In this document: in pieces, positions 14,133-64,000 of the stretch
How the letters are laid out: the number at the start of each line of letters is the position of its first letter
Numbering within the stretch: position 1 is the stretch's first letter
Origin: an uncultured Alphaproteobacteria bacterium
GTDB lineage: Bacteria > Pseudomonadota > Alphaproteobacteria > CAAHEQ01 > UBA3637
Assembly: GCA_944392795.1 (NCBI GenBank)
Contig: CALXXX010000024.1
Location: 215-64,214, forward strand
Direction: 5' to 3'
Length of the DNA stretch: 64,000 nucleotides
The notes under the pieces: model-generated
Databases searched by the model: none
Told to the model about the DNA's origin: nothing
What the model saw: only the letters and a program-made list of their open reading frames with translations
Translations under genes and position numbers: made by a program

Positions 14133-15806
14133 ATGCCTGATAAAAAAAACACACTTCAAATTGGACGGAGTATGATTGAAATCATCGCTGTTTTAGCGAT
14201 TATTGGTATTTTAACTGCTCTTAGCCTAACTTTATATAGCTATTTAATCAACAAACACCGCGCTAATAACACAATTTATGATACTATGTTACGTGCTACT
14301 AATGTCCCAATGTATTATGAGACATATAAAGAGGCAAACGAAGGTACTCTTTTTAATTTCCCTGATCTAGGCCCAACGACACCAGACGCCTATCCAACTC
14401 AAGCCATTCGTGAACCCTTAACATCTCCCTACATTTTCCGAGTAGAAGTAAGTGCTATTCCTAATGAAGTTTGTCGACATGTGATTGATTTAAATCCAAC
14501 TGACATAGATCTTATCAAAATAAACTCAACAGAAAGGAGCAAACCAGACTCCACATCCGCAGATTGCTCGAAACAAAAATTAAATACCTTCTATTTTTAT
14601 TTCGAACCGACAACCCCCTCTTCGTCTGAAGAGGATGACGACCTTCAGGAAGGAGGCTGCACAGAAGATTCTTGTGAAAATTGTCATTTCTGTGATTCAG
14701 AAAGTGGGCAGTGCGTGCGTGAAGATTGCCCAATTCTAACCTGTCCAACAGGTTCTTATGCAACAGGCGTCGATGATTGCAACTGTATTATATCTTGTCA
14801 AGATTGCCCCGAGTTTACGCCATGTAATACTTGTTTTGATACTCTATATGACGCAAAAGGTTGTCCTACAGGTTGTACTCCCAGTACCTCTCATGAATGT
14901 TTATGTCCGGATGAACCTGTGTCTTGTAACCCTTTGTGCGAGACAGAAGGACAAGATAATAACGGCTGTCGAACATGTACTTCTTTATGTACAGAATCAT
15001 GCACAGTCTGTGGAGAAAATGGATGTGAAGCAAGTGATGCTCCAGAATGTCAGTGTCCGGAAGGATGTGATGCTTGTGAACAATGCGTCAACGGTGTATG
15101 TCAATTTATGTGTGGAGCAGAGGAAGTTTGCAATAGTGAAGGAACATGCGTACACTGTCCGTTAATTTTAAATGAAGGCAGAACTTGTCCTGATAATGGT
15201 CAGGGCGCTCTCTACATTACTTGGTGTCATAAAGAATCTTTAGGAGATAACAGCTGTGGTTGTTGCATATCTTGTCCTGGAGAAGGAGTAGCTTATGCTT
15301 TCAAACGAAATCCAGAGTCGCCAGAAGAGTGTTGTTTTGAGGAAGTTATTCAAAAATCAAATGGAGAATGGATGTGCTGCTCCTCAGATTCATCTCTTTA
15401 TAATATGAAATATGCATCTGGTCTCCGCTTTGACAGCAATAATAATCCTTATCTTGGAAGCCCAGCTCTTATTGATACTTTGTGTTGTAAAGCATCACCT
15501 CTTTGTCAATGGGGCTTGGATTACAAAGGAATAGAGATTTGTTATAGGCCTTATCAATGCTGCCCAGAAGGTTCAAAACCGCATATTATTTCGATGATTG
15601 ATAGAGGAGAACATGACATCGAATTTTTATCAGGATGCTGTGCTGGTACAGTGTCATTAAAATATTCTTGCGATTATACCGATTCTGATCCATCCAGTCC
15701 CTGTTATTATATTAGCGGCAATCATGCCGAGGCTTATACTTGTTCTACTGGGTGGATAGAAGATTGCTCAAATTGTACTTCCTCAGGCTATTATACGGTA
15801 GAATAG
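14133..15806 (+). CDS. Prepilin-like protein with a large Cys-rich C-terminal region
   Basis: QIG|RSMIEIIAVLAIIGIL prepilin-like leader (Glu+5), acidic linker, then about 58 Cys by hand count. Start set at MPDKK. Confidence 0.85.
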   Translation: MPDKKNTLQIGRSMIEIIAVLAIIGILTALSLTLYSYLINKHRANNTIYDTMLRATNVPMYYETYKEANEGTLFNFPDLGPTTPDAYPTQAIREPLTSPYIFRVEVSAIPNEVCRHVIDLNPTDIDLIKINSTERSKPDSTSADCSKQKLNTFYFYFEPTTPSSSEEDDDLQEGGCTEDSCENCHFCDSESGQCVREDCPILTCPTGSYATGVDDCNCIISCQDCPEFTPCNTCFDTLYDAKGCPTGCTPSTSHECLCPDEPVSCNPLCETEGQDNNGCRTCTSLCTESCTVCGENGCEASDAPECQCPEGCDACEQCVNGVCQFMCGAEEVCNSEGTCVHCPLILNEGRTCPDNGQGALYITWCHKESLGDNSCGCCISCPGEGVAYAFKRNPESPEECCFEEVIQKSNGEWMCCSSDSSLYNMKYASGLRFDSNNNPYLGSPALIDTLCCKASPLCQWGLDYKGIEICYRPYQCCPEGSKPHIISMIDRGEHDIEFLSGCCAGTVSLKYSCDYTDSDPSSPCYYISGNHAEAYTCSTGWIEDCSNCTSSGYYTVE

Positions 15807-16104
15807 TAGTGAACAATTATCAAAATGATGCTTTGAGGCTTTAAAGCCTCATAATAATTCTCTATGATATTTCGTTCAAATAGAGGGAATTCTGAGAAAA
15901 CTTTTTAAAATTTTAAAGAGTTATAAAATAGAGCTTTACTCAATAAGTCTGTTTTATTCCAGAACCTAAGGTTAAATAGAGTGTTTATTCTGAAAGAAAA
16001 CCACAGAGATAATTTGAATAAAACATAAAGAAATACATATGACTACATTATAAAAATTACATTTATAGAAAAAGTTTAAAAAGAAAATATTGGCATTGTT
16101 AATA

Positions 16105-16134
16105 AAAAACCCCTGTTAAAAAACAGGGGCTTTT
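16105..16134 (-). terminator. Terminator after ptsN
   Basis: CCCCTGTT/AACAGGGG hairpin with T-run on the minus strand. Confidence 0.7.
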
Positions 16135-16146
16135 CATAAATTTCAC

Positions 16147-16602
16147 CTATTCATCAGCATCTGCTGTTTGAATAATTTTCAAAGTTTCTTCTTTTGTTTT
16201 TGCGGAACGCAGCTGAGTACAAACATCTTCATTACGTAATAATTTAGAAATTCGTGCCAAAGCTTTTAAATGATCTGCGCCAGATTCTTCCGGCACCAAC
16301 AAGAAAAAGATTAAATCAACAGGTTTTCCATCAATTGCTTCGAAATCCAATGGCTTTGTACGCATAAAAGCACAAAATAAGTCCTTTAACCCAGGCAATC
16401 TTGCATGAGGAATTGCAACTCCCTTACCAATACCTGTTGTCCCCAAACGTTCTCGTTCGATTAAAGCATCAAAAACAGCTTGATGTTCACATCCAGTCAA
16501 AGGAGCAGACACTTCGGCGACTTCTTCAAGTGCTTGTTTCTTCGAAGCCGCATCAACATCTAAAAAGATGAGACTAGGCTTTAAAATATCCACAATTCTC
16601 AT
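16147..16602 (-). CDS. ptsN: PTS IIA nitrogen-regulatory protein
   Basis: LIERERLGTTGIGKGVAIPHAR (phospho-His), HLKALARISKLL. Confidence 0.93.
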   Translation of the reverse strand: MRIVDILKPSLIFLDVDAASKKQALEEVAEVSAPLTGCEHQAVFDALIERERLGTTGIGKGVAIPHARLPGLKDLFCAFMRTKPLDFEAIDGKPVDLIFFLLVPEESGADHLKALARISKLLRNEDVCTQLRSAKTKEETLKIIQTADADE

Positions 16603-16608
16603 GAGAAA

Positions 16609-17160
16609 TTAGCCTTTATTCTTAGGATCAACCCAACCGATATTACCATCTGAACGACGATATACCATATTCAATCCACCATGTGCTGAATTACGGAACA
16701 TCAACGCAGGCAAATCTGCTAAATCCATACGCATTACCGCACCACTGACAGAACAAATCGGTAACTCTGTTTGCATTTCTGCCACAATAACAGGAGCAGT
16801 TCCTTTAACTTCTTCTTCTTCCTCTGGTTCAATAACGGCAGCATCAACCATTTCAAACTTAATATTTTTATGTTCCGTCAAACGGTTTTTGTAACGCCGT
16901 AGTTGACGAGCGATACGATCACATGCCTGATCAAAAGCGACATATGCATCCGCTCCTTTAGCAGAACCTTTCAATAAAGCACCTGAACCAGGATGAACTG
17001 TGACTTCTGCTTTAATAGCATCGCCTTCGCGAGAAAAAACAACTGACGCATCAATTGCTGCATCAAAATACTTATCGACGACAGCAGACAAGTTTTTTTC
17101 TGCATAAGATTGCATGTTGTCGCCTAAATTCAATTGTTTTCCAGTAATTGTTATTTGCAT
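16609..17160 (-). CDS. hpf: Ribosome hibernation promoting factor (long HPF)
   Basis: MQITITGKQL, RQLRRYKNRL, C-terminal LNMVYRRSDGNIGWVDP; start moved to 17160. Confidence 0.93.
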   Translation of the reverse strand: MQITITGKQLNLGDNMQSYAEKNLSAVVDKYFDAAIDASVVFSREGDAIKAEVTVHPGSGALLKGSAKGADAYVAFDQACDRIARQLRRYKNRLTEHKNIKFEMVDAAVIEPEEEEEVKGTAPVIVAEMQTELPICSVSGAVMRMDLADLPALMFRNSAHGGLNMVYRRSDGNIGWVDPKNKG

Positions 17161-17251
17161 TTTTTTATCCTTAACTATAAACCATAGATTTATCAATCTA
17201 AAAGTCTTTCTCAGAAAAGTCAAGGCACTTCTTTAGCATACCTACAAATTC

Positions 17252-17923
17252 TTAACGGGAATAATGATTATGTTTTTGAAAATTTCTGATTTCTGTCCGC
17301 CGACGTTTTCGAAATTTCTCGTTAATTTGTCCGTAGAGCATCCAATCATCCGGTGAAAAATCATCCTCTTTAAATTGGACTTCCCAAATATTATGATTCA
17401 TGTGTATTACATGAGAGGTCCGAATAAGTGAAGCTTTAGTAGCACCTACATTTTTAGCCTCAACTCGGTACCATAGAACTTTTGAATCCATCATCGTATT
17501 TAAAATGCTTTCTAAGCCTTGATCCCCCAGTGGATTACCCGAAAGTGTTAATCGCCCTATTTTTTTAGATGATAAAACGGTAGCCAAAGCAGGGGCAGAA
17601 GCCGAAGTCATCTGACAATTTTCTAAGTCAATCGTCGTACAATGTGTATTATCCTTTAAACTTTCCGCCAATTTTAAAATGATCTCATCTGTCATTTTTT
17701 GCCCGGACCAATTTAATGTATCTAGCTCTGAATCGTTCTGCATAATTTGATTTAATTGATATTTCAGTTGTTCCGAAGAAAGTTTTATGACATTGTTTTC
17801 TAAATATCCTCTTTGCTTGTACTGTAGTCGCAATTTCTCATCTGCCGTTTCTTTAGCAATCAAGGCATGACGTTCTTCTTCTGTCATATCTGTCATATAT
17901 TGAAATTTTAAACGAGATGTCAT
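17252..17923 (-). CDS. Leucine-rich-repeat protein, ribonuclease-inhibitor-like class
   Basis: LDTLNWSGQKMTD, TTIDLENCQMTS, GRLTLSGNPLGDQG at about 28-aa spacing; SD AGGAGGT before ATG 17923. Confidence 0.8.
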   Translation of the reverse strand: MTSRLKFQYMTDMTEEERHALIAKETADEKLRLQYKQRGYLENNVIKLSSEQLKYQLNQIMQNDSELDTLNWSGQKMTDEIILKLAESLKDNTHCTTIDLENCQMTSASAPALATVLSSKKIGRLTLSGNPLGDQGLESILNTMMDSKVLWYRVEAKNVGATKASLIRTSHVIHMNHNIWEVQFKEDDFSPDDWMLYGQINEKFRKRRRTEIRNFQKHNHYSR

Positions 17924-17974
17924 AATATACCTCCTGCAAATAAAAATTATAGCAAAAAATAGACAAAAAATCAA

Positions 17975-18003
17975 TTGATTTTAAGAAAGAAATTGTTTAG
18001 ACT
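17975..18003 (+). promoter_or_regulatory. Candidate sigma70 promoter (leaderless hemW)
   Basis: TTGATT-N17-TAGACT, 6 nt before ATG 18010. Confidence 0.45.
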
Positions 18004-18009
18004 AAAAAA

Positions 18010-19062
18010 ATGGAAAAATTCGGTATTTATATTCATTGGCCTTTTTGTCTGTCTAAGTGTCCGTATTGCGATTTTTTCTCATTGCCAGCAGCCTCTTGGG
18101 ACGAGAAGACTTTAGAAAGTGCTTATATACGAGATTTAAAACGAATTCCTATTCGAACAGTAACAAGCTTATTCTTTGGTGGAGGAACTCCCTCTCTGAT
18201 GAGCCCGCGTTTGGTCCATCGCTTAATAACTGTGATCCGTGATAATTTCCCTGTTGCCTCAGAAATGGAAATATCCTTGGAAGCCAATCCGGATGCTATT
18301 GATAAACTTAAAATGGAAGCTTTTCATGCAGCTGGAATAAACCGACTCTCTTTAGGGATACAAGCTTTAAATCAAAAAGATTTAAAATTTCTAGGAAGAC
18401 GACATACTTTAGAAACAGCTTTACAACGCATTGAAGAAATGAAGTCTGTCTTTTATAATTTTTCTTTCGATCTCATATATGCTCGACCTGGACAAACTTT
18501 GCAAGCTTGGCAAAACGAGCTGGAAGAAGCTCTTTCATTTAATCCCCCTCATCTCTCTTTATATCAGTTAACAATTGAAGAAGAAACACCTTTTGCGCGT
18601 AAAAACATTGATCTTCCTGATGATGAAATAGCCAGATCGCTTTATGAATGGACTTTAGAAAGAATGGAAAAAGCTGATTGTCCTTTCTATGAAGTTTCTA
18701 ATTTTGCTCGTTCCGGTTTTGAATGCCGACATAACCTTTTATATTGGGAAGGAGATGACTATGCAGGCATTGGACCCGCTGCCCATGGTAGACTGGGATT
18801 AATTGCAACTGAGAACCCTAAGAACCTATCAAGTTGGTTAAAAGGAGAAACAATTACAACACTTTTATCCCCCTTTGAAAGACAAGAAGAAAAACTGATC
18901 ATGGGGCTTCGTCTCAAAAAAGGTATATCCGATAAAGGACTATCACCGATCAACATTCAAAAAGCGATCAAAAAGGGATGGTTAAAACAAGAAAAAGGAC
19001 GTATTTTTGCAACCCGTGAAGGTTTTATGATGCTCAATCAACTGATTCTGGAACTGGCATAA
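18010..19062 (+). CDS. hemW: Radical SAM heme chaperone HemW (HemN-like)
   Basis: IYIHWPFCLSKCPYCDF, FFGGGTPS, LEANP, HLSLYQLTIE, HNLLYW. Confidence 0.9.
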   Translation: MEKFGIYIHWPFCLSKCPYCDFFSLPAASWDEKTLESAYIRDLKRIPIRTVTSLFFGGGTPSLMSPRLVHRLITVIRDNFPVASEMEISLEANPDAIDKLKMEAFHAAGINRLSLGIQALNQKDLKFLGRRHTLETALQRIEEMKSVFYNFSFDLIYARPGQTLQAWQNELEEALSFNPPHLSLYQLTIEEETPFARKNIDLPDDEIARSLYEWTLERMEKADCPFYEVSNFARSGFECRHNLLYWEGDDYAGIGPAAHGRLGLIATENPKNLSSWLKGETITTLLSPFERQEEKLIMGLRLKKGISDKGLSPINIQKAIKKGWLKQEKGRIFATREGFMMLNQLILELA

Positions 19063-20476: not shown

Positions 20477-20560
20477 GTTATCAAAAATATTTTTATTATT
20501 TATCTTCTTTTGGTATAATCGAAAATAATTAAAATTTCAACAAAAAAGAGGATTCTTTTC

Positions 20561-22339: not shown

Positions 22340-22535
22340 ATTATTAAACCTGCTTTTATCTTTTATTCCCCCAGGAAATGAAGCTCTTAAAGACAGAGCT
22401 ATCCTATTGGCAACTTTTGATAATTTAAAAGACGCTATTGAAGCAATGGAAGCCTATATTGCCAATGCTGATCCAGATGAAGATACTTCTAAAGAACGAG
22501 AATTTTTGGAAAAAATGAAAAATCATCTCAATTAA
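22326..22535 (+). CDS. Small hypothetical protein
   Basis: ORF overlapping the BON gene end; plausible amphipathic helices. Confidence 0.55.
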   Translation: MNNNELLNLLLSFIPPGNEALKDRAILLATFDNLKDAIEAMEAYIANADPDEDTSKEREFLEKMKNHLN

Positions 22536-35141: not shown

Positions 35142-37949
35142 ATGAAACTTGCTGAATTACTCAAAATTGCCAGAGTGGCAACTCCTTTTGAAACAGACAT
35201 CGATATTCGTGGTATTACCTCGGACTCGCGCGAGGTTGAAAAAGACTATTTATTCGTTGCTTTACCTGGCACGAATCACAATGGACTAAAATATGTTCCA
35301 GATGCAATTTCTAAAGGAGCAGCAGCTATTCTGACACAAGAAGCTTTCGAAGCTTCTATTCCTGTTTTTCAAACGAATCATATTCGTGAAGCCTTAGCAG
35401 CGATGTGTGTTCTTTTTTATGAACCTCATCCTGGAACACTTGTTGCCGTTACAGGGACAAATGGTAAGACTTCTACAGTTTTTTTTACAAGACAAATTTT
35501 TGAACATGCTGGCTTTCTTGCTGCAAGCATGGGAACACTAGGCGTGCAATCTAAAAATTTTCATTCCTATAGTGGAATGACAACGACAGATACGGTTCAT
35601 CTGAACCAAGATTTGCAAGCTTTAGCTGAAAACGGCATTACACACGTAGCTATGGAAGCTTCCAGTCATGGATTGGAGCAACATCGTTTGGATGGATTAA
35701 TGTTTAAAGCCTCAGCTTTTACAAATTTAACACGAGATCATTTAGATTATCATCTAACGATGGAGGCTTATCTTGAAGCAAAATTAAAACTGTTTACGCA
35801 GCTGACAAGTGAAATAGCAGTTTTAAATGCAGATGTTCCTGAGTATGAATCCATAAAAAGTGTCTGTCTTAACAGAGGTTTACGCATTTTTAGTTATGGG
35901 AAAGATGGAGAAGAAATCCGCTTGCTGTGTCAAACCTTACACGAAACCGGACAAGAATTAACGATTGAATTATTTGGACATGTTTACACGGTTGATGTTC
36001 CTGTTGCCGGACATTTTCAAGGAATGAACGTTCTGGCTGCATTAGGTCTAGCGATTGGTGCCGGAGTCGATATTGAAAAAGCAGTTGAAGCTTTAAAAAC
36101 ACTCAAAAGTCCTGATGGTCGAATGGAATTGGTTGGCCGAACCCAAAAAGGCGCATCTATTTTTGTCGATTATGCTCATACGCCAGATGGTCTAGAAACA
36201 GCTTTAAAATCTCTTCGTTTACACACAAAGGGGCATTTGAGCGTTGTTTTTGGCTGTGGCGGTAATCGAGACACGGGGAAACGTCCCATGATGGGAAAAA
36301 TTGCAACAGATTTAGCCGATACGGTTATTGTGACAGATGATAACCCCCGTTTCGAAGATGCAAAGCTCATTCGTTCTCAAATTTTAGAAGCAGCTCCTCA
36401 TGCCATTGAAATTGCTGACAGAGCCAAAGCTATTTTTTATGCTATTTCACACTTAGAGGCTGGGGATGTTTTATTACTGGCTGGCAAGGGACACGAAGAA
36501 GGACAGCTTATTAATGGTTTTATGCATCCGTTCAATGACAAAATTCAAGCGATTCTCAGTTTAAGAACTTTAGAAGAAAAACCTCTTTGGACAAGTGATG
36601 AATTAATAGAAGCAACTTCAGGAAAGGCTTATAAAACTTTTGTAGGCTACGGTGTTTCAATTGATACGCGGACACTTGTCCCCGGAGACATTTTTATCGC
36701 GCTTAAAGGAGAAAGACTTGATGGTCACGATTACGTCGCAGAAGCCTTAAAAAAAGGAGCAGCAGCTGCCATCGTCAGCCATGACATCCCGGATGTTTCA
36801 GACTCAGCAAAGCTCTTCTTTGTTGTCAACACAGATGAAGCTCTAGAAGATATGGCTCGTTATGCGATGCGCCATTCTCGGGCCTTAAAAATCGGGATTA
36901 CGGGCAGTTCAGGGAAAACAACAACAAAAGAAATGCTTGCTTTGGCATTAACCGGGCAAGGAACAATTCATGCGACTAAAGGCAACTTAAATAATCAATG
37001 GGGAGTTCCTCTAACGCTTGCACGTTTGCCACGTTTGACTGATTATGCCATTATTGAAATGGGAATGAATCATACGGGAGAAATGGAATATCTTTCTCAC
37101 TTAGTCGAGCCTGATGTTGCGATGATTACGATGATCGGCTCGGCACATCATGAGTTTTTTAAAACACTCCAGGATATTGCAGCAGCTAAAGCCGAAATTT
37201 TTATTCACATGAATAAACTCGGTACGGCTGTTTTACCAAGAGATTCAGACTATTACGAATTTTTAAAGAATAAAGCGATAGAACATACTGTTGCACATCA
37301 AATTTCTTTTGGACAAAATCTAGATGCTGACTCTCGTCTTTTAAAGGCGGAGCAAACATCAGAAGGAACATTTGTTTCTGCGAGCCTTATGGGAGAATTG
37401 GTCACCTTTTCATTACAAACGACCGGCATGCACTTTGTTATAAATGCTCTCGGTGTTTTAGCTATAGTAAAAGCCTTGGGAGCAGATGTAAAAAAAGCAG
37501 CTCAGAACCTATCTAAGATGAAGCCGCTCAAAGGACGAGGAGAACAAGTCCAAGTATGCCTTGATGGTAAGCTCATTACTTTAATTGATGACAGTTACAA
37601 CGCGAATCCTTCATCTATGAAGGCAGCTCTTTCCGTGTTGGGACAAAAGCAAGGGCGTAAACTGGCTGTTTTAGGAGATATGCTTGAATTAGGCGAACAA
37701 TCTAAAACGTTGCATACTGCTTTAGCTCAAGATTTAGTCAACCAAAAAGTAGATCGCCTTTATACAGTCGGACGAGAAATGCGGGCTTTGTTTGAAGCCG
37801 TTCCAGCAGAAATGCGTGGTTGGGCTGCACAAACTGCATTAGAGCTGCTTCCAATTCTGAAACAAGACTTAAGAAATGGCGATGTTGTTTTGTTTAAAGG
37901 CTCGAACGGGACAAAAATAACTCGTTTGGTTGAGGCTCTTCAAAATTAG
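35142..37949 (+). CDS. murE/murF: Fused MurE-MurF peptidoglycan ligase (935 aa)
   Basis: First half GTNGKTS, MEASSHG, DNPR (mDAP specificity); second half GSSGKTTTKE, IDDSYNANPSS; no stop between them. Confidence 0.95.
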   Translation: MKLAELLKIARVATPFETDIDIRGITSDSREVEKDYLFVALPGTNHNGLKYVPDAISKGAAAILTQEAFEASIPVFQTNHIREALAAMCVLFYEPHPGTLVAVTGTNGKTSTVFFTRQIFEHAGFLAASMGTLGVQSKNFHSYSGMTTTDTVHLNQDLQALAENGITHVAMEASSHGLEQHRLDGLMFKASAFTNLTRDHLDYHLTMEAYLEAKLKLFTQLTSEIAVLNADVPEYESIKSVCLNRGLRIFSYGKDGEEIRLLCQTLHETGQELTIELFGHVYTVDVPVAGHFQGMNVLAALGLAIGAGVDIEKAVEALKTLKSPDGRMELVGRTQKGASIFVDYAHTPDGLETALKSLRLHTKGHLSVVFGCGGNRDTGKRPMMGKIATDLADTVIVTDDNPRFEDAKLIRSQILEAAPHAIEIADRAKAIFYAISHLEAGDVLLLAGKGHEEGQLINGFMHPFNDKIQAILSLRTLEEKPLWTSDELIEATSGKAYKTFVGYGVSIDTRTLVPGDIFIALKGERLDGHDYVAEALKKGAAAAIVSHDIPDVSDSAKLFFVVNTDEALEDMARYAMRHSRALKIGITGSSGKTTTKEMLALALTGQGTIHATKGNLNNQWGVPLTLARLPRLTDYAIIEMGMNHTGEMEYLSHLVEPDVAMITMIGSAHHEFFKTLQDIAAAKAEIFIHMNKLGTAVLPRDSDYYEFLKNKAIEHTVAHQISFGQNLDADSRLLKAEQTSEGTFVSASLMGELVTFSLQTTGMHFVINALGVLAIVKALGADVKKAAQNLSKMKPLKGRGEQVQVCLDGKLITLIDDSYNANPSSMKAALSVLGQKQGRKLAVLGDMLELGEQSKTLHTALAQDLVNQKVDRLYTVGREMRALFEAVPAEMRGWAAQTALELLPILKQDLRNGDVVLFKGSNGTKITRLVEALQN

Positions 37950-50012: not shown

Positions 50013-50531
50013 ATGAAAAAAACTTTTTTAGCGATATTGGCCGGTATGATTCTGTTTTCCAGTCCTGTTTTAGCACAAACGAATAAACGCTTGGAAATGC
50101 TTGGAACGTTTGGTTCTTGGACTGCATACAAAATGGATGAAAAAGACGGTAAGTTATGTTATATGGCTTCCGTTCCTCAAAAGTCAGAAGGAAAATACAA
50201 ACGCCGCGGAGATGTTGTGTTAATCGTAGCTCACCGTCCAAATGAAAAAACATGGGACGTTGTTAGTTTAACTGCCGGTTATACTTATAAAAAAGATTCT
50301 TCTGCGTCCATTAAGATTGATAACCAAAAAGCGATTAGTTTATTCACGCATGAAGATACGGCTTGGGCAAATTCTTCCAAAGCCGACTCACAATTGGTCC
50401 GTATGATGAAAGCGGGGAATAAAGCTGTTATTCAAGGAAAATCATCCCTGGGTACTTTAACAACTGACACGTTCTCTTTATCAGGCTTTACAAAAGCATA
50501 CAACGCCATCAGCAAAGCTTGCGGTAAATAA
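50013..50531 (+). CDS. Invasion-associated locus B (IalB)-family periplasmic protein
   Basis: Signal peptide, GTFGSW, CYMASVP, DTFSLSGFTKAYNAISKAC; upstream of rlmN. Confidence 0.85.
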   Translation: MKKTFLAILAGMILFSSPVLAQTNKRLEMLGTFGSWTAYKMDEKDGKLCYMASVPQKSEGKYKRRGDVVLIVAHRPNEKTWDVVSLTAGYTYKKDSSASIKIDNQKAISLFTHEDTAWANSSKADSQLVRMMKAGNKAVIQGKSSLGTLTTDTFSLSGFTKAYNAISKACGK

Positions 50532-50534
50532 TAA

Positions 50535-51779: not shown

Positions 51780-52184
51780 ATGAAAAATACTCAACAAGGT
51801 CGTTCTATGATTGAAATGCTCGGCGTTTTAGCCATTATCGGTGTTTTGTCCATCGGTGGCTTGGCTGGTTACACAATGGCGATGAACCGCCACAGAGCAA
51901 ACCAAATTTTGGACTATGTCTCTCGTGCTGTTGTTATTGCTCAAACAAAGGGCGATGGTGCACAATCCATCGATGATACTTGCCAAAACATTTTGGATGG
52001 TGAAGCAGTTCCTGTCTCTGGCATGACTTGCGAAGTAGATCGTACAGCTGGTATCGATCAAAATACAACAGTCACAGTTGGTGGTGTTAATGAACGTATT
52101 GCTGCTGCTTTAGCAAACCGCTCCGGCAACCAAGTAACAATTACATCCACTTCAAATGGTGCTAATTTCACATTCATGAATTAA
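51780..52184 (+). CDS. Type IV pilin-like protein, copy 1
   Basis: QQG|RSMIEMLGVLAIIGVLSIGGLAGY; 134 aa; one Cys pair. Confidence 0.88.
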   Translation: MKNTQQGRSMIEMLGVLAIIGVLSIGGLAGYTMAMNRHRANQILDYVSRAVVIAQTKGDGAQSIDDTCQNILDGEAVPVSGMTCEVDRTAGIDQNTTVTVGGVNERIAAALANRSGNQVTITSTSNGANFTFMN

Positions 52185-52206: not shown

Positions 52207-52614
52207 ATGAAGAATACTCAACAAGGTCGTTCTATGATTGAAATGCTCGGCGTTTTAGCCATTATCGGTGTTTTGTCCATCGGTGGCTTAGCCGGTTACA
52301 CAATGGCCATGAACCGTCACAGAGCAAATCAAATCTTGGACTATGTCTCTCGTGCTGTTGTGATCGCTCAAACAAAGGGTGATGGAACACAGGAAATTTC
52401 GAATGAAAATTGCTCTACCATTTTAGATGGTGAAGATGTTCCAGTCTCCGGCATGGGATGTACAGTGAACAAAACAGCTGGCTATGCAAATATCACTGTT
52501 TCTGTAACAAATGTTAACAGCCGTATTGCAGCTGCTTTACAAAATCGTTCCGGTAACCAAGTAACGATTACATCTACTTCAAACAGTGCTGCTTTCACTT
52601 TTGCAAGTTCATAG
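52207..52614 (+). CDS. Type IV pilin-like protein, copy 2
   Basis: First 60 aa identical to copy 1; diverged C-terminal half; same AAAGGATTTTTAAA leader. Confidence 0.88.
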   Translation: MKNTQQGRSMIEMLGVLAIIGVLSIGGLAGYTMAMNRHRANQILDYVSRAVVIAQTKGDGTQEISNENCSTILDGEDVPVSGMGCTVNKTAGYANITVSVTNVNSRIAAALQNRSGNQVTITSTSNSAAFTFASS

Positions 52615-52732: not shown

Positions 52733-54298
52733 ATGAACACAGCTTTAGATCTTCTTAACAAAGGCGTTGAATACGCACAAAATAAAAATTACACTCAAGC
52801 GGAAAAATGTTTCCGTCAATCCCTAGAACTGGATCCGAATAATCCTGTTACTATTCGAAACCTTGGCAACGCTTGCGCAGCAGATGGCCGAATGACGGAA
52901 GGGCTTGTCTATCTGACACAATACTTGGATATGAGACCTGACGACTTAGAAACCATGGGACATGTCCTTTACTTAAAGTATAATTACTGCATTTGGAATG
53001 GATTAGAAAGAATGCAGGAACGCCTTAAAAAAGGATTACAAGAACATACTCTGCAATCCGAACCTAAACTTTTATTTTTGGGAATGACTTTCGAAGAACG
53101 CTATCACTATATGACGAAGCTAGCCGCAGAGAACAAAAAACTTTCTCTTTTGCGCAAAGAAAAACCTTTCTCATTACCAACTTATCAACACGACAAGTTA
53201 AAAGTCGGTTTTTTCACAACAGATATAGGACCTTCTCCTTGTGGTTTTGTCATTGCCAGTTTATGGGAAAACTTATCTCACGATGATTTTGAATGGCATT
53301 GTTTTTCTTGCCGAAAACTTTCCGATAAGCCTGAAGATGCTCCCTTAATAAAGCGGCACAAGGCGGCTTTTGATTTTTTCCATGACGTCTCGAATATAAA
53401 AGACTTCCGCATGATGGCTGATACCATAGCAAAAGAAGAAATTGATATTTTAATTGATGTCAATATGCTTATCAATTCAATGTATCCGGCTTTATATTAC
53501 AAGCCTGCACCGATTATCGTAAATTATTTAGGCTATCCTTCGACAACAGGCTTGCCTTGGTATGATTATATGATTGCAGATGCTTGGACCGTTCCTTCAG
53601 AAAAAGAACGTTGGTTTACAGAAAAAATTATTCGTATGCCTCATTGTTATCATTGTGTTGACACAAACCCTGAAACTTATCCAGGGCTTGCACCTAAATC
53701 GATTCTAGGACTTCCAGAAAAAGGAACTATTTTTGCCTGTTTAAATTCTCCGTTTAAAATTACACCTCACTATTGGGATATGTGGATGCGAATTTTAAAG
53801 GCTGTTCCTGACAGTATCCTTTGGTTACGTTCTTTTAATTTTGAAACTGATGAGAAATTTAAAGAAGAAGCTAAAAAACGCAATATTAATCCCAACAGAA
53901 TTATTGTCTTGCCGAAAATGCCAACTCATGCAGACTTTCTGTATTGCTTCAAAAATGCTGATTTATTTCTGGACACAGAAATGTACAACGCACATTCAAC
54001 TGCTTTAGAGAGTCTTTTCTGTGGTGTCCCCCTTATTACTTGTCCAGGAGACTCTTATGCCTCACGCGTTTCATCCAGTATGCTGCATGCCTTCGGATTA
54101 GATGAGATGATTTGCAAGACAGAAGAAGAATATGAAAAAAAAGCAATTGAACTTGGTCTTAATACAGAAAAGCTCAATTGTCTTAAAGCAAAAACCGTTG
54201 CGTTAATGACACAAAATAATCCACTGTTTGATATGAAATCTTATGCACGAGATTTTGAGAAGCTTTTACGACAAATTTCATCTAAAAAGAATTCTTAA
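52733..54298 (+). CDS. TPR-containing GT41 (OGT/SPINDLY-like) glycosyltransferase
   Basis: About two N-terminal TPRs; PAPIIVNYLGYPSTTG, FACLNSPFKIT, DLFLDT..YNAHST, PGDSYASRVSSSML. Confidence 0.9.
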   Translation: MNTALDLLNKGVEYAQNKNYTQAEKCFRQSLELDPNNPVTIRNLGNACAADGRMTEGLVYLTQYLDMRPDDLETMGHVLYLKYNYCIWNGLERMQERLKKGLQEHTLQSEPKLLFLGMTFEERYHYMTKLAAENKKLSLLRKEKPFSLPTYQHDKLKVGFFTTDIGPSPCGFVIASLWENLSHDDFEWHCFSCRKLSDKPEDAPLIKRHKAAFDFFHDVSNIKDFRMMADTIAKEEIDILIDVNMLINSMYPALYYKPAPIIVNYLGYPSTTGLPWYDYMIADAWTVPSEKERWFTEKIIRMPHCYHCVDTNPETYPGLAPKSILGLPEKGTIFACLNSPFKITPHYWDMWMRILKAVPDSILWLRSFNFETDEKFKEEAKKRNINPNRIIVLPKMPTHADFLYCFKNADLFLDTEMYNAHSTALESLFCGVPLITCPGDSYASRVSSSMLHAFGLDEMICKTEEEYEKKAIELGLNTEKLNCLKAKTVALMTQNNPLFDMKSYARDFEKLLRQISSKKNS

Positions 54299-54302
54299 AA
54301 GG

Positions 54303-57270
<2,968 letters not shown>

Positions 57271-57274
<4 letters not shown>

Positions 57275-59115
57275 TTCTTCACTTTTTTATCCATATAGTC
57301 ACTCACAAGCTCTTTTAATGTCTCATCTAATTCTTTTTCTAAAGAAGTTGATAACTTAGATGCTTTATTGATTTCTTCTAAAAGATAAGGTTGATTAAGA
57401 CGAATTTGCTCTAACATTTTTGTTTCAAAATCAGGAATATCTGATGGCTCCATCGAAGATAAATACCCTTTTACAACAGCATAAAGAGAAATAAACTCTT
57501 CCTCAAATGACAAAGGTTGATGAAGCTTTTGTTTAAGTACCTCTGTCATTCGAACACCTTTACGCAATAATTCTTGAGTTGTCTCCTCTAAATCAGAAGC
57601 AATTTGCGCAAAAGAAAGCATCTCACGATATTGAGACAAGTCTAATTTCATAGAGCCGGAAATTTTTGCTAAAAGAGGACGTTGAGCTTTAGAGCCTACT
57701 CGACTGACAGATAAACCGACATTAACAGCCGGACGAACGCCTTGATGAAATAATCCGCTTTCCAAAAAAATTTGCCCATCTGTAATAGAAATGACATTTG
57801 TCGGAATATACGCAGATACATCCCCTTCTTGCGTTTCAACAACCGGTATAGCTGTTAAAGAACCTCCACCCTTTTTGTCACTCATCATCGCAGCTCGCTC
57901 TAACAGCCTGGAATGTAGATAGAAAATATCCCCAGGATAAGCTTCTCGACCAGGAGGCCGCCGCAGTAATAATGAAATTTGACGATAAGCATTTGCATGC
58001 TTTGATAAATCGTCCAGAAAAACAATAGCATTCATCCCTTGGTCACGAAAATATTCTCCAATTGTCATCCCCGTAAACGGAGCCAAATATTGTAAAGAAG
58101 CCATATCAGAGGCTGACGCTAATACAATGGTCGTATAAGCCATAGCTCCTTCATTTTGTAAAATGCGTTGCACCTCTGCAACTGTTGACTGCTTTTGCCC
58201 GATAGCAACATAAATACAATAAACTTTTTCCTTTTCGCTTTTGGCTTGTTCATTCACTCTTTTTTGATTTAAAATACTATCAATAATCAAGGATGTTTTT
58301 CCGGTTTGACGATCCCCCACGATTAATTCCCGTTGTCCCAGTCCTATTGGAACAAGAGCATCTATCACTTTAATACCCGTTTGAAAGGGAATTTTTACCG
58401 GCTGACGTTCAATAATACCCGGAACAGATGCCTCTAAAGGCATCTTAGTTGTTGCCTTTAATTCTCCAGCATCATCAATAGGCTCCCCTAAAGCATTTAC
58501 AACTCTGCCAATCAATTCTTTCCCAACAAAAACCTTAGGAACATCACCCGTTTGAACAGCTAAATCGCCTTCTTCCAATTTCGAGCTGTTAGACAACAAA
58601 ACAACATCTGAATATTCCGGATTTAAATTAAAAACGATTCCCTTAATCTTATTTGAAAAGTCTATAAGTTCTCCCGCTCGCGTCCGTTTCATCCCAGATA
58701 CGCGAACTATACCATCTTTAATCGAAACAACACGTCCTATTTGCTTAACTTTCGGATGAACACTTTTTTCCTCCGCTAATCTTTTAAGCAAATGATCAAA
58801 TGCGCCAGATGATAGTTCTGTCAAAGAAACTTTACCTAAAACTTCTTGAAGTTGATACAACTTTTCTTTAACAGAAGCATCAATTAAGGAAGAGCCTATT
58901 TGTAACTGAAAACCACCCAATAAAGAAGGATCAATTTTAATATTTAACAAAGCTTTTTTGACATGCAGCGATTGTGAAACAAGTTCACTGATCTGCAACT
59001 GTTGCCTTTTATTGAGTGCGTGAGACGTAATAATATCAACATATAATTCCTCGCAAAGGAAAGTCTCTTTTTTAGAGTGTTGCTTCTTATTTTTTGTCTG
59101 TTTTTCTACAACCAT
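57271..59115 (-). CDS. atpH/atpA: Fusion of ATP synthase delta C-terminal domain and alpha subunit (614 aa)
   Basis: Residues ~24-93 carry delta/OSCP C-domain motifs (IITSHAL, IDPSLLGGFQLQIGSSLIDASV). The rest is alpha (GDRQTGKT, PPGREAYPGD, GLSVSRVG). Confidence 0.92.
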
Positions 59116-59139
59116 TATCTTCCCCTTTTCTTTTTTTTA

Positions 59140-59168
59140 GTTGTAGCACAAACAAACACCCCCTGCAA
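59140..59168 (-). promoter_or_regulatory. Candidate promoter of the F1 operon
   Basis: TTGCAG-N17-TACAAC with extended TG, upstream of the AAGGGG SD. Confidence 0.45.
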
Positions 59169-59183
59169 GAAAACACTTTATTT

Positions 59184-59699
59184 TTATGTCTCAGGAATAA
59201 AAATATCTTCTAATTGGGCTTGTTTTAAGTTAAATCCTCGCCAACCGTATTGAAAAGGCAAAGAAAGGCATATCAGAGACGCTGATGGACAACTTTCTGA
59301 AAGATGATATCGAATAGTAACGGATGTCGGAACCAATAACTGAATAAACTCGAACAAGGCAGGACTATGTCCAATAATCATAATTTGATCAATTGTATCA
59401 TCTACTAAATTTAAAAGCTCTAAAAGAGTATATTCACTTGCTAAGTATAAGAAATCCAAAAAAACAATATGCCCTGTATGACAAAAAGGCGATAGACCCT
59501 CAAAAGTCTCGCGCGCTCTTTTTGCTTTGGAACAAAAAATGAGCTCTGGCTCTATGGAATGCAAAGATAAATAATGCTTTAATTTTTTCACTTGCCGTTT
59601 TCCCTTCAGAGACAACGGCCTATCAAAATCACGCATCTGCGCTGTTGCTCGACGACCTTGTGCATTATTCAACAGATATAGGATACGCTTTTTGCACAT
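59184..59699 (-). CDS. SixA-like histidine-phosphatase fold, catalytic RH motif absent
   Basis: DFDRPLSLKG, FCSKAKRARET, IIGHSP, but LLNNAQ where LRHAK/LRHG is expected. Confidence 0.75.
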   Translation of the reverse strand: MCKKRILYLLNNAQGRRATAQMRDFDRPLSLKGKRQVKKLKHYLSLHSIEPELIFCSKAKRARETFEGLSPFCHTGHIVFLDFLYLASEYTLLELLNLVDDTIDQIMIIGHSPALFEFIQLLVPTSVTIRYHLSESCPSASLICLSLPFQYGWRGFNLKQAQLEDIFIPET

Positions 59700-59761
59700 T
59701 AAAAATCCCCCTTAGTTTCAATCCAAAAAAGGATACAACTAAAAGTTGAGATGAGCAAGCT

Positions 59762-60220
59762 TTATTTTAAAGTAGATAAAACATTTTGTTCAATTTCGCG
59801 CAACCTTTGACGTACCTCTTCTTGAATAAAAGGATAAGATACGTTTTCTTCACGAGGCCAAATGGGCTTCATATCCGGAGAAAAGTCTGTTGTTTCCAAC
59901 CATTCATCTTTCGAACGAACTGTTGCCTTTTTTTCTTTTTGTGGAATAGAAGTTTCTATGATCTCAGGTAAAGTCTGTTTTGAAGCTGGTTTAGTTTCTG
60001 CCTCATCCACAAAAACAGAAGGTAAAAACTCGGAATGACGCGTATGATCCTTAACCAAATCCTTATATTTATAATGAGCAAAATACAAAATTGTGCTCAA
60101 CAAAAGGACAAGAACAATAGGAATAAAATAATGATTAAACAATAAAAGACATGCACCAAGTGCTTGCCCCATTCGATTAAAAAGAGATAACGGTGTTTTT
60201 TTCTTTCTCTTAGAGGGCAT
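59762..60220 (-). CDS. Hypothetical membrane-anchored protein
   Basis: Basic N-terminus, hydrophobic segment, AAGGAG SD. Confidence 0.7.
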   Translation of the reverse strand: MPSKRKKKTPLSLFNRMGQALGACLLLFNHYFIPIVLVLLLSTILYFAHYKYKDLVKDHTRHSEFLPSVFVDEAETKPASKQTLPEIIETSIPQKEKKATVRSKDEWLETTDFSPDMKPIWPREENVSYPFIQEEVRQRLREIEQNVLSTLK

Positions 60221-60229
60221 TATGTCTCC

Positions 60230-60466
60230 TTATTTAATCTTCTCAGAAATACGTTCTAACTGACGTTCTTCTCGCCCGATAATTCCTTGAGAAGAATGAG
60301 AAACATCTTGTGCTCCTTCAACCACAACCTCCTTTGTGGACGAGAAAACGCTCATTATTTTCCCGGGGACTTCTCGAGGGGTAATTCCTCCGAAGAACCA
60401 AAAAGCTCCAAGAATAAGAGCAAGAATAACAATCCACTCAAAAAGTTGTCGTAAAAATTCCCGCAT
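60230..60466 (-). CDS. Small single-TM hypothetical protein
   Basis: WIVILALILGAFWFFGG; AGGAG SD. Confidence 0.65.
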   Translation of the reverse strand: MREFLRQLFEWIVILALILGAFWFFGGITPREVPGKIMSVFSSTKEVVVEGAQDVSHSSQGIIGREERQLERISEKIK

Positions 60467-60590
60467 TTTATTCTCCTTTTTTCTTTCTTTTCTTATAATT
60501 TAAACAAAAATATTTCTTTTGTCATTAAGTTTTTATGCTTTTTATTGAGAAAAAATTTTTTTCCTTCTATATTAAGAAGGAGAAGGAAAA

Positions 60591-61055
60591 ATGTTTTATT
60601 TTTTTAAAAGTAAAAAGCAAAAAACAAAACAACCGTTTTGGGAACATAAAAAGCTATCTCAAATGACCGAACAAGAATGGGAAAGCTTATGCGACAGGTG
60701 TGGTAAATGTTGCTTAATTAAAATCGGCGTTTGGCGAATTCGATTCACGAACATCGGCTGCCCGCTTTTAAATGTAAAAACGGGTTTATGTTCAAGCTAT
60801 TCAAACCGTTGGAATACTGTCCCAGAATGCATCAAATTAACTCCCAAAAATTTACGAAAATATGCTAAATATCTTCCAAGGACTTGTGCTTATCTATGGA
60901 TTTTAAAAAAGCGTCGTCTACCACCTTGGCATTACTTAGTATCAGGTTCACGCCAAAGTGTTCATCAAATGGGAATTTCCGTTAAAAACAGAGCAGAACC
61001 CTTCCAACAACCTGTCGATTTAAAGGAGCATGTTATCTCATGGTCCGATCTTTAA
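60591..61055 (+). CDS. YcgN family Cys-cluster protein (UPF0260)
   Basis: EWESLCDRCGKCC, CSSYSNR, VPECIKLT, LPRTCAY, WHYLVSG. Confidence 0.9.
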   Translation: MFYFFKSKKQKTKQPFWEHKKLSQMTEQEWESLCDRCGKCCLIKIGVWRIRFTNIGCPLLNVKTGLCSSYSNRWNTVPECIKLTPKNLRKYAKYLPRTCAYLWILKKRRLPPWHYLVSGSRQSVHQMGISVKNRAEPFQQPVDLKEHVISWSDL

Positions 61056-61723
61056 TTGTTTCAGGAACATCCATAGATATTATTCCTAAAAAAGGATGCC
61101 ATTCTCTCAAGTTGAGAATAGATCGGAAAACAGGAAAACCACAAGTTATTATTCCATTTTTATATCCCATTTTTATGGTTCAAAAATTTATAGAAAGTCA
61201 TATCGTTTGGTTACAAAAGCAGATATCATTAACACCGCAAAAAATAACTTTTAAAGACGGAATGAAACTTTCAATTTTAGGGCAAGAGCTTATCATTCGA
61301 CATCAAGATAAAAGAATCGGCGGCGTATTTATTGAAGGGAACATCTTAATTGTCACAGGTTCTTCTGAACATCTTCACAGACGCGTAAAAGATTTTATCC
61401 AAAAACAAGTCTCTGAATATGTTTCTGTGAAAGCGCCAAAAATAGCAGAACAGTTAAATTGTTCTATCAAACGCATAACCATCAAAGATACCATTTCACG
61501 CTGGGGAAGCTGCACCTCAACAGGACATCTATCTTTTTGTTGGCGACTGGGTCTAGCTCCTCTATTTGTTTTAGATTACGTAATTATCCATGAGGTTGCT
61601 CATTTGGTTGAAATGAATCATTCTTGGGCTTTTTGGAAAAAAGTTGCAGAATTAAATGCTAATACACGACAAGCAAAAAAATGGCTTAATGAAAACGCAC
61701 CTTACTTGCATTCTTTTCTATAG
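61040..61723 (+). CDS. YgjP/DUF45-family metallo-hydrolase
   Basis: SRWGSC, DYVIIHEVAHLVEMNHS. Confidence 0.88.
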   Translation: MVRSLIVSGTSIDIIPKKGCHSLKLRIDRKTGKPQVIIPFLYPIFMVQKFIESHIVWLQKQISLTPQKITFKDGMKLSILGQELIIRHQDKRIGGVFIEGNILIVTGSSEHLHRRVKDFIQKQVSEYVSVKAPKIAEQLNCSIKRITIKDTISRWGSCTSTGHLSFCWRLGLAPLFVLDYVIIHEVAHLVEMNHSWAFWKKVAELNANTRQAKKWLNENAPYLHSFL

Positions 61724-61744
61724 AAATCTTATTTTTTCGTTGAA

Positions 61745-62497
61745 ATGGCCATTAAAAAAAGATACACTCTTTCAAAGGGATGTAAAAAGGATTCTAATAT
61801 GTTTTTTTGGTTGGCTGTTTTAACATTTTTTACGACAATTTTAATTTATGGTTTCTATCCACGCTCTGACGCACTTAAAATCGTCGACAAACCGGAAGCA
61901 AATAATGCTATTTCAGAAGTTGTCACACAGCATACTTCAGCTCTGCAAGGCATCACCCTGCAAAAAGGCGGACGTCCTGTCTATATCGATCTCGTTCCGG
62001 AAAATGGCTCTGTTACTTTATCTGAGGATGTCTACTATAATTATTTACCTGATGGTTTTATCTTCTCGGAGACTCCTCCCATTAGTCGTGTTTTTTGCCT
62101 AAATAATACCAACGGACAGCCCGCAGATACTTGCGCTGTCACAGCGCCAACAGCAGCTTACCCTAAAGGAACAACAGATTTTCTTGTTACTTATGGAGAT
62201 GTTCCTTTTAATTTTAGTGCTTATATTGCCGCTCTTGCCCCACGCTCATTGGGAGAAAAGGTCTTCCTCACAGATTACTCAGAAGAATATCATTTACAAA
62301 CAAATTGTGGAACCGTCAGCTGTGAAAATGGTGTTTGTCACCTTAATAATACACGATACTTAACGGCAGAAGTTCCTATTTCAATTGCCGATCAAATACC
62401 AGAAGGTAGTTTAGTTTGCTTGTCTCGTTTATCCGCGGCTTATGAGTTAGATGAAAACAACAAGCCAACTTTAATTCAAGTGACACATTTACCTTAA
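61745..62497 (+). CDS. Single-TM exported protein, possibly pilus accessory
   Basis: One N-proximal TM, four Cys, YLPDGF; immediately upstream of the PilV-like gene. Confidence 0.65.
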   Translation: MAIKKRYTLSKGCKKDSNMFFWLAVLTFFTTILIYGFYPRSDALKIVDKPEANNAISEVVTQHTSALQGITLQKGGRPVYIDLVPENGSVTLSEDVYYNYLPDGFIFSETPPISRVFCLNNTNGQPADTCAVTAPTAAYPKGTTDFLVTYGDVPFNFSAYIAALAPRSLGEKVFLTDYSEEYHLQTNCGTVSCENGVCHLNNTRYLTAEVPISIADQIPEGSLVCLSRLSAAYELDENNKPTLIQVTHLP

Positions 62498-62513
62498 ATG
62501 AAGAGAGGAAAAC

Positions 62514-64000
62514 ATGTCTAATATCAGTTATAAAACACAAAAAGGTTCTTTAATGATTGAAGTTATCGCCGTTTTGGGATTGCTTGCTTTAATCACGCCT
62601 CTTTTATTCCAACAAATTGCACGCCGCAATGAAGAAATTATCAACACACAAATAGCGACAGAAGTCAGAGCTGTTAAAGATGCTGTTGCTGCATACATTC
62701 AAGCAAATGAAAATCAAATTGCTCGTAATTGCGGCCTTACAGATGAAAATGGAACTTATATTGCGACACCTGATGGAGAAATCTATGCATGCGATGCCAT
62801 CGGTTCTGCCGAGTTTATTCCTTTCTTTAGCGGAATCAGCGGTGTATTATCAGACTATAATTATGAGTTCTATGGTTACACGATCCCAAGTCGATCAGAC
62901 AGCGCCGGAAATGTATCGGATTATCGTCCTGTGATTTATGCGACGATTAGTAGAAATGCTGGAGAAAACTTTACTTTAAGACAAGCCGCTCGAATTGCTT
63001 CGTTAATCGGTCTAGACGGAGGTGTTGTCGTTGAAGATCCTGATGTCCCCTCCCAAAGAATTATCAGTGGCATACAAGGTGCTTGGGAATTAGATACAAC
63101 TCTCCCCCTCAACACAATCGTTGCTGTCACAGCATTCAATGACGCAACAAATTCAGCTATTTTAAAAGATGTTAAACTAGAACACTTCCAAGGACAAACC
63201 ATGCAAGCAGATACAGCCGTTGCTACTCGTATGAATGTCAGAGAATTTTTATCCATCGGACCTAATAATATAACCTCTTGCATTGAAAACTATGGAAACA
63301 ATACAATCCGCGTAAAGTATGGACAAACAGAAGAGGATTTAACAGCAGATCCGGCTATTTCTCCAGAATGTGCTCCATTGTTCGAAGTGAATGGAGATAC
63401 AGGCGTTGTTTATATCCATAATGGACAAATTCGTACCGGTCAAAAGATAGAAGCTTCTCAATCTACAGCTGGAGAAACACGCGAGACAAATGCAGATGGA
63501 ACACCTAAGTATGATGAATATCAATTGGATCCTGCTTATACTTCCGTGATGAATGACATTAAATTGACCTCTCGAGGCGGAGCTCGACTCAGCGATATTT
63601 TACCTAACTATGTTTTAAAAGATATTTATTATGCAAGCACCTCAACTTCTGATGGAGCGAATGTATCCGATGTCACTTATCCTGGATTATCGGGACATAC
63701 CATTACAGGAAATCCTTGGACTGTTCCTATCCCTGAATGTCCGGTAGGATACGCCCCTGCTATCACAGTATCTCCTTCACTTATTCAAGGTGCCTTAATG
63801 TATACCTTTCCTGAAGAAATAACGGAAGTTAACACAAAAGGTTTTGCTAAAGCCAGCGGTGCTTATCGTTTTCTAATCTCAGAAAAAGAAGCTGTTAAAA
63901 AAGAGGCCCCAAACGCGACAGGAAACTGGTCCATTACGGTTCAATTTTGGCATCCTGATAAATACTGGACAGCAGCAGGTAATGTTTTTCGATCACTTAT
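62514..64000 (+). CDS. Prepilin-like, shufflon-PilV-like adhesin (3' end outside the window)
   Basis: Translated by hand; absent from the ORF track because there is no stop. MSNISYKTQKG|SLMIEVIAVLGLL, AARIASLIGLDGG, GIQGAW, VPIPECPVGYAPAI; open to the window end. Confidence 0.8.
   Translation, partial: MSNISYKTQKGSLMIEVIAVLGLLALITPLLFQQIARRNEEIINTQIATEVRAVKDAVAAYIQANENQIARNCGLTDENGTYIATPDGEIYACDAIGSAEFIPFFSGISGVLSDYNYEFYGYTIPSRSDSAGNVSDYRPVIYATISRNAGENFTLRQAARIASLIGLDGGVVVEDPDVPSQRIISGIQGAWELDTTLPLNTIVAVTAFNDATNSAILKDVKLEHFQGQTMQADTAVATRMNVREFLSIGPNNITSCIENYGNNTIRVKYGQTEEDLTADPAISPECAPLFEVNGDTGVVYIHNGQIRTGQKIEASQSTAGETRETNADGTPKYDEYQLDPAYTSVMNDIKLTSRGGARLSDILPNYVLKDIYYASTSTSDGANVSDVTYPGLSGHTITGNPWTVPIPECPVGYAPAITVSPSLIQGALMYTFPEEITEVNTKGFAKASGAYRFLISEKEAVKKEAPNATGNWSITVQFWHPDKYWTAAGNVFRSL

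Follow-up and report, generated by a model that had tools for sequence, protein, structure and literature searches.

The IncI plasmid R64/TP114 thin pilus (PilL-PilV) and its relatives on chromosomes or plasmids, which include PAPI-1, the Burkholderia PilO2 variant, and the Bosea pBSY19_1 cluster, are the closest known counterparts of the system described here. Known type IVb pilins have long leaders and Met, Leu, Trp, or Ser as the first mature residue (+1), and a major pilin of this style comprises about 180-240 aa (PMC9045228). Reviews identify Gly-1 as the critical residue for prepilin processing (PMC4471445). Current models place a pairing between the N-terminal amine of one subunit and Glu5 of the next at the core of the filament and leave the role of N-methylation unexplained (PMC10191384). 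Modular type IV pilins have been described in Streptococcus sanguinis, where the module is of the vWA type in PilB and a lectin in PilC (PMC8179133, PMC9934059). Here, we analyze four pilin-like genes in a 64,000-nucleotide window, the whole stretch of DNA examined, which corresponds to positions 215-64214 of contig C24 in the 1.29-Mb assembly of an uncultured alphaproteobacterium (41 contigs, 99% complete). Three of their products are predicted to begin with Arg once the leader is removed. We consider it likely that all four contribute subunits to a single type IVb pilus of the R64 kind (PilL/N/O/P/Q/R/U/V), which is chromosomal and inherited vertically.

Pilin signals and a PilV homolog in the window

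All four open reading frames (ORFs) were confirmed to encode a short leader, a Gly, four residues, a Glu at +5, and then a hydrophobic helix; the motif is G|RSMIE in three of them and G|SLMIE in the fourth, with equal Gly-to-Glu spacing. The gene at 14133-15806 (+) encodes a modular Arg+1 pilin (...LQIG|RSMIE) with a Cys-rich C-terminal part; the protein has 557 aa if translation starts at the ATG at 14133 and 577 aa if it starts at the upstream ATG at 14073. Two short genes lie in tandem: 51780-52184 (+) encodes a 134-aa pilin (MKNTQQG|RSMIE; leader MKNTQQG, 127 mature residues) that is a candidate major subunit, and 52207-52614 (+) encodes its 135-aa paralog with the same N-terminus. The gene at 62514-64000 (+) encodes a large minor pilin of the PilV type (KTQKG|SLMIE), a putative tip adhesin of 517 aa whose end lies 67 nt past the window.

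In the small-pilin profile, each column of G|RSMIE falls on the corresponding column of G|FTLIE in solved pilins. A generic motif scan (G, four residues, E, then an uncharged helix) returned 33 hits in the whole genome, mostly members of the pilin family together with a few ordinary polytopic membrane proteins, and 112 forward hits in related loci, all with Arg, as compared with none on the reversed sequence; the G-x4-E pattern is therefore not a chance occurrence. Gly-1 and Glu+5 are invariant in both the Arg+1 small-pilin and the PilV families, and an uncharged helix follows. A hydrophobic or small residue at +1, which a class III signal would have and which is often N-methylated, is replaced by Arg in 27 of the genome's 29 pilins. 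Against TIGR02532 (cut-off 16.3), the small pilins scored 16.7 and 16.5 and the 14133 product 10.7, and the PF07963 score was 18 against a cut-off of 21.2; these borderline results are probably the reason why the proteins carry the label "hypothetical" in automatic annotation.

Alignment of the 62514 family with the annotated PilV of Bosea sp. RAC05 by hhalign gave a probability of 97.4% (E 1e-11, 370 columns). The Bosea protein belongs to the type IVb cluster of plasmid pBSY19_1, is annotated as a shufflon-type tip adhesin, and has the motif G|L. The 62514 family has 135 homologs, all from the same kind of metagenome-assembled genomes (MAGs), and the +1 residues of 30 aligned members are Ser (18), Ala (11), and Val (1); one homolog is named "type II secretion system protein" by NCBI. 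The AlphaFold2 (AF2) model of the 62514 product contains a confidently predicted pilin module (residues 1-205) and a C-terminal beta domain, with a poorly modeled joining region. In a related MAG the gene order is ATP synthase, YgjP, an unannotated 278-aa gene, pilV, and Sua5, the same as in the window, where the 278-aa gene was matched by position alone, not by homology, to the ORF at 61745-62497 (+). The latter encodes a conserved, membrane-anchored protein of 250 aa directly upstream of pilV, in which Pfam and NCBIfam scans found no match. Because the position between the ATP synthase operon and sua5 is kept in another MAG, pilV appears to be an old chromosomal gene, and its place between housekeeping genes in conserved synteny argues for a chromosomal, nonmobile gene. 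No shufflon was seen; rci and sfx repeats were not searched for. The ATP synthase alpha gene in this neighborhood (57271-59115, -) encodes a 614-aa protein in which the delta (OSCP) subunit is fused to the N-terminus of alpha; this alpha-delta fusion is conserved, as a 609-aa homolog in a related MAG contains PF00213, PF00006, and PF00306.

The small pilin at 51780 has 1,133 relatives in which G7, R8, S9, and E12 are invariant, and the small-pilin alignment combines a near-invariant alpha1 helix with a variable head. Its AF2 model (pLDDT 79) has the lollipop shape of a pilin, with a 54-residue helix (residues 3-56) and a five-strand beta-sheet; the best fold match, the C. difficile pilin PilW, is weak. 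The 52207 product shares its first 52 mature residues with that of 51780 and has a different head. With 7-aa leaders and 127-139 mature residues, the small pilins of this genome lie outside the leader length and size range of type IVb-style major pilins; the six of them likely include the major subunit. A tblastn search of a small pilin against plasmids returned no match. With respect to a structured leader RNA upstream of the small pilins, an Rfam scan of the window gave one tRNA only; the regions upstream of two small-pilin loci had no obvious shared sequence by inspection and no shared predicted structure, and the upstream region of another pilin did not align. Directly after the small-pilin pair lies a gene for a TPR and GT41 (OGT/HMW1C-like) protein glycosyltransferase (52733-54298, +; PF13844, 5.6e-66). 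A homolog of this gene occurs less than 2.5 kb from a small pilin in only 2/80 related loci, which makes any connection with pilin glycosylation weak. The gene at 50013-50531 (+), two genes before the small-pilin pair, encodes a member of the IalB (invasion-associated locus B) family that carries a signal peptide.

The 14133 product begins with a pilin module of about 150 aa, and the remaining ~400 aa form a Cys-rich passenger. Eight complete large members of the family, including this one, align over the ~150-aa module, with its conserved Cys pair, and then diverge, so that each joins a complete pilin module to a distinct grafted one. The passengers are disulfide-rich repeats with 6-14% Cys, in which Pfam scans (that of the 14133 passenger included) found nothing significant; they plausibly represent alternative adhesins. 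Fragments of paralogs are found at contig ends. One member has a C-type-lectin-like look, which a PDB sequence search did not support. An XRE-family helix-turn-helix regulator (PF01381, 4e-14) is encoded at 13382-13750 (+), ~380 nt upstream of 14133, and could be a local regulator. On contig C21, the ORF containing position 35834 (+; 688 aa) is a modular Arg+1 pilin whose C-terminal part resembles a Hint/bacterial-intein-like domain (C..TQVTLADG ... HLNCFTNGILT) and continues into an extension of about 80 aa. Support for this Hint-like domain, which may be a self-cleaving or toxin-like passenger, is weak (PDB 6y75, E 0.024; PF05203, E 0.046).

The ORFs and the genome census bear out the original prediction, made from the window alone, that type IV pilin-like genes are dispersed here among housekeeping genes, and the small major-pilin-like, Cys-rich adhesin-like, and PilV-like classes that it named can all be recognized, the last through the hhalign match. 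Its description of the +1 residues as noncanonical holds for Arg and fails for Ser, which is listed for type IVb pilins (PMC9045228); only Arg at this position lacks precedent among type IVb pilins.

Assembly machinery and prepilin peptidase

A seven-gene pil operon, type IVb and R64-thin-pilus-like, lies at positions 11166-20405 of contig C40. It encodes, in order, a conserved 396-aa protein, a TcpQ/PilL-like lipoprotein with a TcpQ domain (PF10671, 3e-17), a lipoprotein secretin (PF00263; best model TIGR02520, the PilN family, 274.5 bits), PilO (PF06864, 8e-27; 94.6 bits against a cut-off of 26.7), PilP (TIGR03021, 40.7 against a cut-off of 34.65), a GspE/PilB-like assembly ATPase of 566 aa (PF00437, 2e-67), and a platform protein of 373 aa (PF00482, 2.5e-26). 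The TcpQ-domain (PF10671) and secretin (PF00263) matches both exceed the cut-offs of their models. An Arg+1 pilin gene starts 29 nt after the platform gene. The best-scoring models for the ATPase and platform protein are GspE, GspF, and ComGB; the pilins are not type II pseudopilins by the GspG and GspH models (E 0.1-0.2), and the machinery markers are PilN, PilO, PilP, and TcpQ. An unlinked gene encodes a PilT-like ATPase of 379 aa that shares 38% identity (E 2e-57) with the second, likewise PilT-like, ATPase of the Bosea pBSY19_1 cluster. Divergent from the pil operon, at C40:7709-10985 (-), lie virB4 (PF03135, 8e-11), virB3-like, and virB2/TrbC-like genes; by analogy with IncI plasmids, this arrangement suggests that the pilus and type IV secretion may be functionally paired.

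The genome contains one A24 prepilin peptidase, a 233-aa protein encoded on contig C15 that contains the motifs AID...LLPD and GGGDVK. The first cytoplasmic loop of this enzyme is short, without the four-Cys zinc site, and the PilD-type methylase domain PF06750 gave no hit in the genome even at E<=1. As had been proposed, the window itself contains no assembly ATPase or peptidase (there is no T2SSE ATPase or A24 match on its contig); the peptidase, assembly ATPase, platform protein, and secretin for which a search had been recommended are all present elsewhere in the genome, and a genome devoid of type IV filament machinery, the outcome regarded there as fatal to the idea, is not what was found. 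The further proposal of altered processing is unsupported as stated: the single A24 peptidase is an ordinary one with both catalytic Asp motifs, and the PilV family, presumably a substrate of the same enzyme, has Ser, Ala, or Val at +1. The sole likely difference in processing is the absence of the PilD-type N-methylase domain.

Arg+1 is encoded by all four CGN codons in this genome and by AGA elsewhere, and Ser+2 by both AGY and TCN. Because the Arg codons turn over while the residue stays, Arg+1 is under selection at the protein level. Given the small +1 residues of the PilV family and the presence of a single peptidase, cleavage probably does not depend on Arg, which is most likely kept for assembly instead. 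In the filament core, the guanidinium group of Arg1, in combination with a methylase-less peptidase, could provide the positively charged partner of Glu5. Arg+1 may alter the Glu5 interface.

Pilin repertoire and distribution among relatives

A tblastn pass followed by ORF extraction on the whole genome identified 29 pilin genes, 15 of them full-length (134-853 aa) and the other 14 cut off at contig ends. The family occupies at least 1.7% of the genome, with truncated copies counted as they stand. Arg is the +1 residue in 27 members, Trp in one, and Ser in one; Phe and Met are absent. Six members are small (134-172 aa) and include two tandem pairs, the second of them on contig C34; about 22 are longer or truncated, and the complete large ones are modular with Cys-rich passengers. 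About ten paralogs are 90-100% identical over their first ~200 coding nt but have unrelated DNA immediately upstream; this near-identity of the 5' ends suggests that concerted evolution or gene conversion may have acted on these "big" paralogs. It also accounts for much of the fragmentation of the assembly. The "big" paralogs in question sit at the ends of contigs C6, C9, C19, C20, C22, C23, C24 (bases 2-205, just before the window), C28, C35, C37 (both ends), and C40. The presence of 14 paralogs at contig edges gave rise to the idea of a shufflon-like or programmed rearrangement, which was rejected as unsupported: the overlap between contig ends is exactly 127 nt, the k-mer of the assembler, the missing C-terminal parts sit at other contig ends, and the first 200 nt are nearly the same among paralogs, all of which argues for ordinary repeat fragmentation. 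Recombination among the paralog copies is possible.

The paralog with G|WSMIE at C22:159 (-), which runs into C33, has TGG for CGG, one base apart; this sole exception to Arg in the Arg family could be genuine, or an error of assembly or sequencing could have produced it. Trp at +1 has been reported for some known type IVb pilins (PMC9045228). A 265-aa protein encoded at C40:1221-2018 (-) is a chimera in which an N-terminal part, judged by eye to resemble SHOCT and TM2 membrane domains, precedes a pilin alpha1 segment (...GGLAGYTMAMNRHRANQLLDY) and head, so that a permanent membrane anchor stands in place of the class III signal; similar proteins occur in other metagenomes (P0338, P0360).

The host order comprises one family with 16 genera and genomes of 0.7-2.0 Mb, and the relatives are MAGs from human, rabbit, and ruminant gut. 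Among 80 genomes examined, 54 of them high-quality, the small-pilin profile found matches in 80/80 (5 to >51 each). PilO is single-copy in 71/80 (52/54 high-quality genomes), and the A24 peptidase in 77/80 (54/54), with an open frame of typically about 230-270 aa. The seven-gene operon order is kept in six genomes of different genera, in four of which virB2 is adjacent. None of these six relatives has a pilin gene after pilR; as a rule, then, the pilin genes are dispersed. In a sample of 300 genomes, four other alphaproteobacterial families also contained the exact GRSMIEMLGVLAIIG motif. Against 1.84 billion representative proteins, the profile identified 5,632 clusters (50% identity) at E<=1e-3; the motif is present in 141 of 145 diverse representatives retrieved, and Arg occupies +1 in all 141 (RSMVE in 100, RSMIE in 41; median leader 7 aa). 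These data support the earlier suggestion of a lineage-specific system. The genes of the system, though scattered, are inherited together.

Proposed pilus and comparison with known systems

In the type IVb pilus that we favor, prepilins would insert into the inner membrane, where the single short A24 peptidase would cut after Gly-1, probably without N-methylation because it has no methylase domain. The PilQ-like ATPase, the PilR platform, PilO/PilP, and the PilN secretin (with the TcpQ/PilL-like lipoprotein) would then polymerize the small Arg+1 pilins into a shaft. The single-copy PilV homolog (G|S) would be the initiating or tip minor pilin, and the modular Arg+1 pilins, which share a common handle, would be incorporated as alternative carriers of disulfide-rich binding modules. 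The dispersed PilT-like ATPase may retract the pilus. The pilus would have an adhesive function, possibly in the service of the adjacent VirB-type secretion system.

Several observations weigh against this assignment. The 7-aa leader is short in the manner of type IVa pilins and, like the small size of the pilins, atypical for type IVb. The curated prepilin motif models TIGR02532 and PF07963 are borderline, and fold searches of both AF2 models against the PDB returned weak matches or none. The secretin score falls just under the TIGR02520 PilN equivalog cut-off of 287.65, and PilO was not found in 9/80 genomes, mostly incomplete ones.

The same evidence bears on three other explanations. Arg+1 may be a frozen quirk of the lineage without mechanistic consequence, in an otherwise ordinary type IVb pilus; prepilin peptidases tolerate many +1 residues. 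Such a quirk would be consistent with Gly-1 as the critical residue for processing (PMC4471445), with the occurrence of Ser, Ala, or Val in the same genome's PilV family, which presumably shares the single peptidase, and with the Trp for Arg in one paralog. However, the retention of Arg by all 141 motif-bearing representatives of a family of 5,632 clusters, together with codon turnover, indicates strong purifying selection, and a charged side chain at the start of a buried helix is unlikely to be neutral; we regard a neutral quirk as unlikely. It is also improbable that the genes encode a display or secretion device, namely a short pseudopilus, like those of type II secretion systems or of the archaeal bindosome, that presents or releases large Cys-rich proteins. 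Most family members within this 1.29-Mb genome are indeed longer or modular, the ATPase and platform protein score best against GspE, GspF, and ComGB models, and the name NCBI gives to one PilV homolog points in the same direction; yet the secretin, PilO, PilP, TcpQ, and PilV signatures are those of R64-type pili rather than type II secretion, the conserved helix and variable head of the small pilins are typical of exposed shaft subunits, and the GspG models reach only E about 0.2.

Alternatively, the proteins could be uncleaved signal anchors, that is, membrane-tethered surface or periplasmic proteins unrelated to the pil operon. Scores at or below threshold in the curated prepilin models, the lack of linkage between most pilin genes and the machinery, and the chimera with a pilin head on a TM2 domain instead of a class III signal would all fit. 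Such anchors would nonetheless leave unaccounted for the invariance of Gly-1 and Glu+5 at canonical spacing, the co-occurrence of pilins, peptidase, and PilO across the order, the pilin gene directly after pilR in this genome, and the homology of 62514 to PilV, and we consider this explanation very improbable. An extension of the R64-kind pilus can be put forward tentatively, with the whole more doubtful than its core. One type IVb machine would serve as a general display platform in uncultured small-genome gut Alphaproteobacteria, with an invariant G|RSM(I/V)E handle, a methylase-less peptidase, and dozens of interchangeable disulfide-rich passengers per genome; Arg1 would replace N-methyl-Phe1 as the partner of Glu5; near-identical 5' ends would let the C-terminal modules reshuffle by recombination; and the pilus would mediate contact with a partner or host cell for the VirB-type secretion system whose genes diverge from the pil operon.

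Models of how type IV filaments assemble currently center on the first residue and Glu5 (PMC10191384), and thousands of clusters that have Arg first, alongside a peptidase without a detectable methylase domain, constitute a natural experiment on the role of the N-terminus. No description of an Arg-first pilin was found in the literature searched ("GRSMIE", or "Arg+1" with pilin). One paper on the Rs-D84 group of gut Alphaproteobacteria with reduced genomes, which the present genome resembles, reported no type IV pili in that group (PMC12306168). In these very common, uncultured, reduced-genome bacteria of gut and rumen, pilus subunits and adhesin-like modules take up at least 1.7% of the genome, and a surface-contact apparatus fits the partner-dependent lifestyle proposed for them.

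Among described minor pilins, the 62514 product is like TcpB of Vibrio cholerae and CofB of enterotoxigenic Escherichia coli in being the single large (about 420-520 aa), bimodular, Glu5-containing minor pilin of its system; no sequence or fold match to either was obtained, and the demonstrated homology is to PilV only. A lineage-specific polar +1 residue has a parallel in the archaeal EppA-dependent pilins of Methanococcus, which have Gln at this position and a dedicated second peptidase; here, unlike in the EppA system, one peptidase appears to serve both Arg and Ser/Ala substrates. As in the modular pilins of S. sanguinis, a pilin module acts as the handle for a functional module grafted C-terminally and presumably shown on the filament. 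Unlike in S. sanguinis, which has one or two such genes, many are present in 1.29 Mb, the passengers are disulfide-rich and without a curated domain, the machine is a type IVb system in a diderm, and the handle starts with Arg. With the R64 kind of thin pilus, the present system has in common a TcpQ/PilL-like lipoprotein, a PilN-family secretin, PilO (PF06864), PilP, an assembly ATPase, a platform protein, a short prepilin peptidase, a large PilV minor pilin, and a nearby type IV secretion system. It differs from that kind in being chromosomal, vertically inherited, and split over at least five sites, in its tiny candidate major pilins with a 7-aa leader and an invariant Arg+1, and in its dozens of extra pilin genes.

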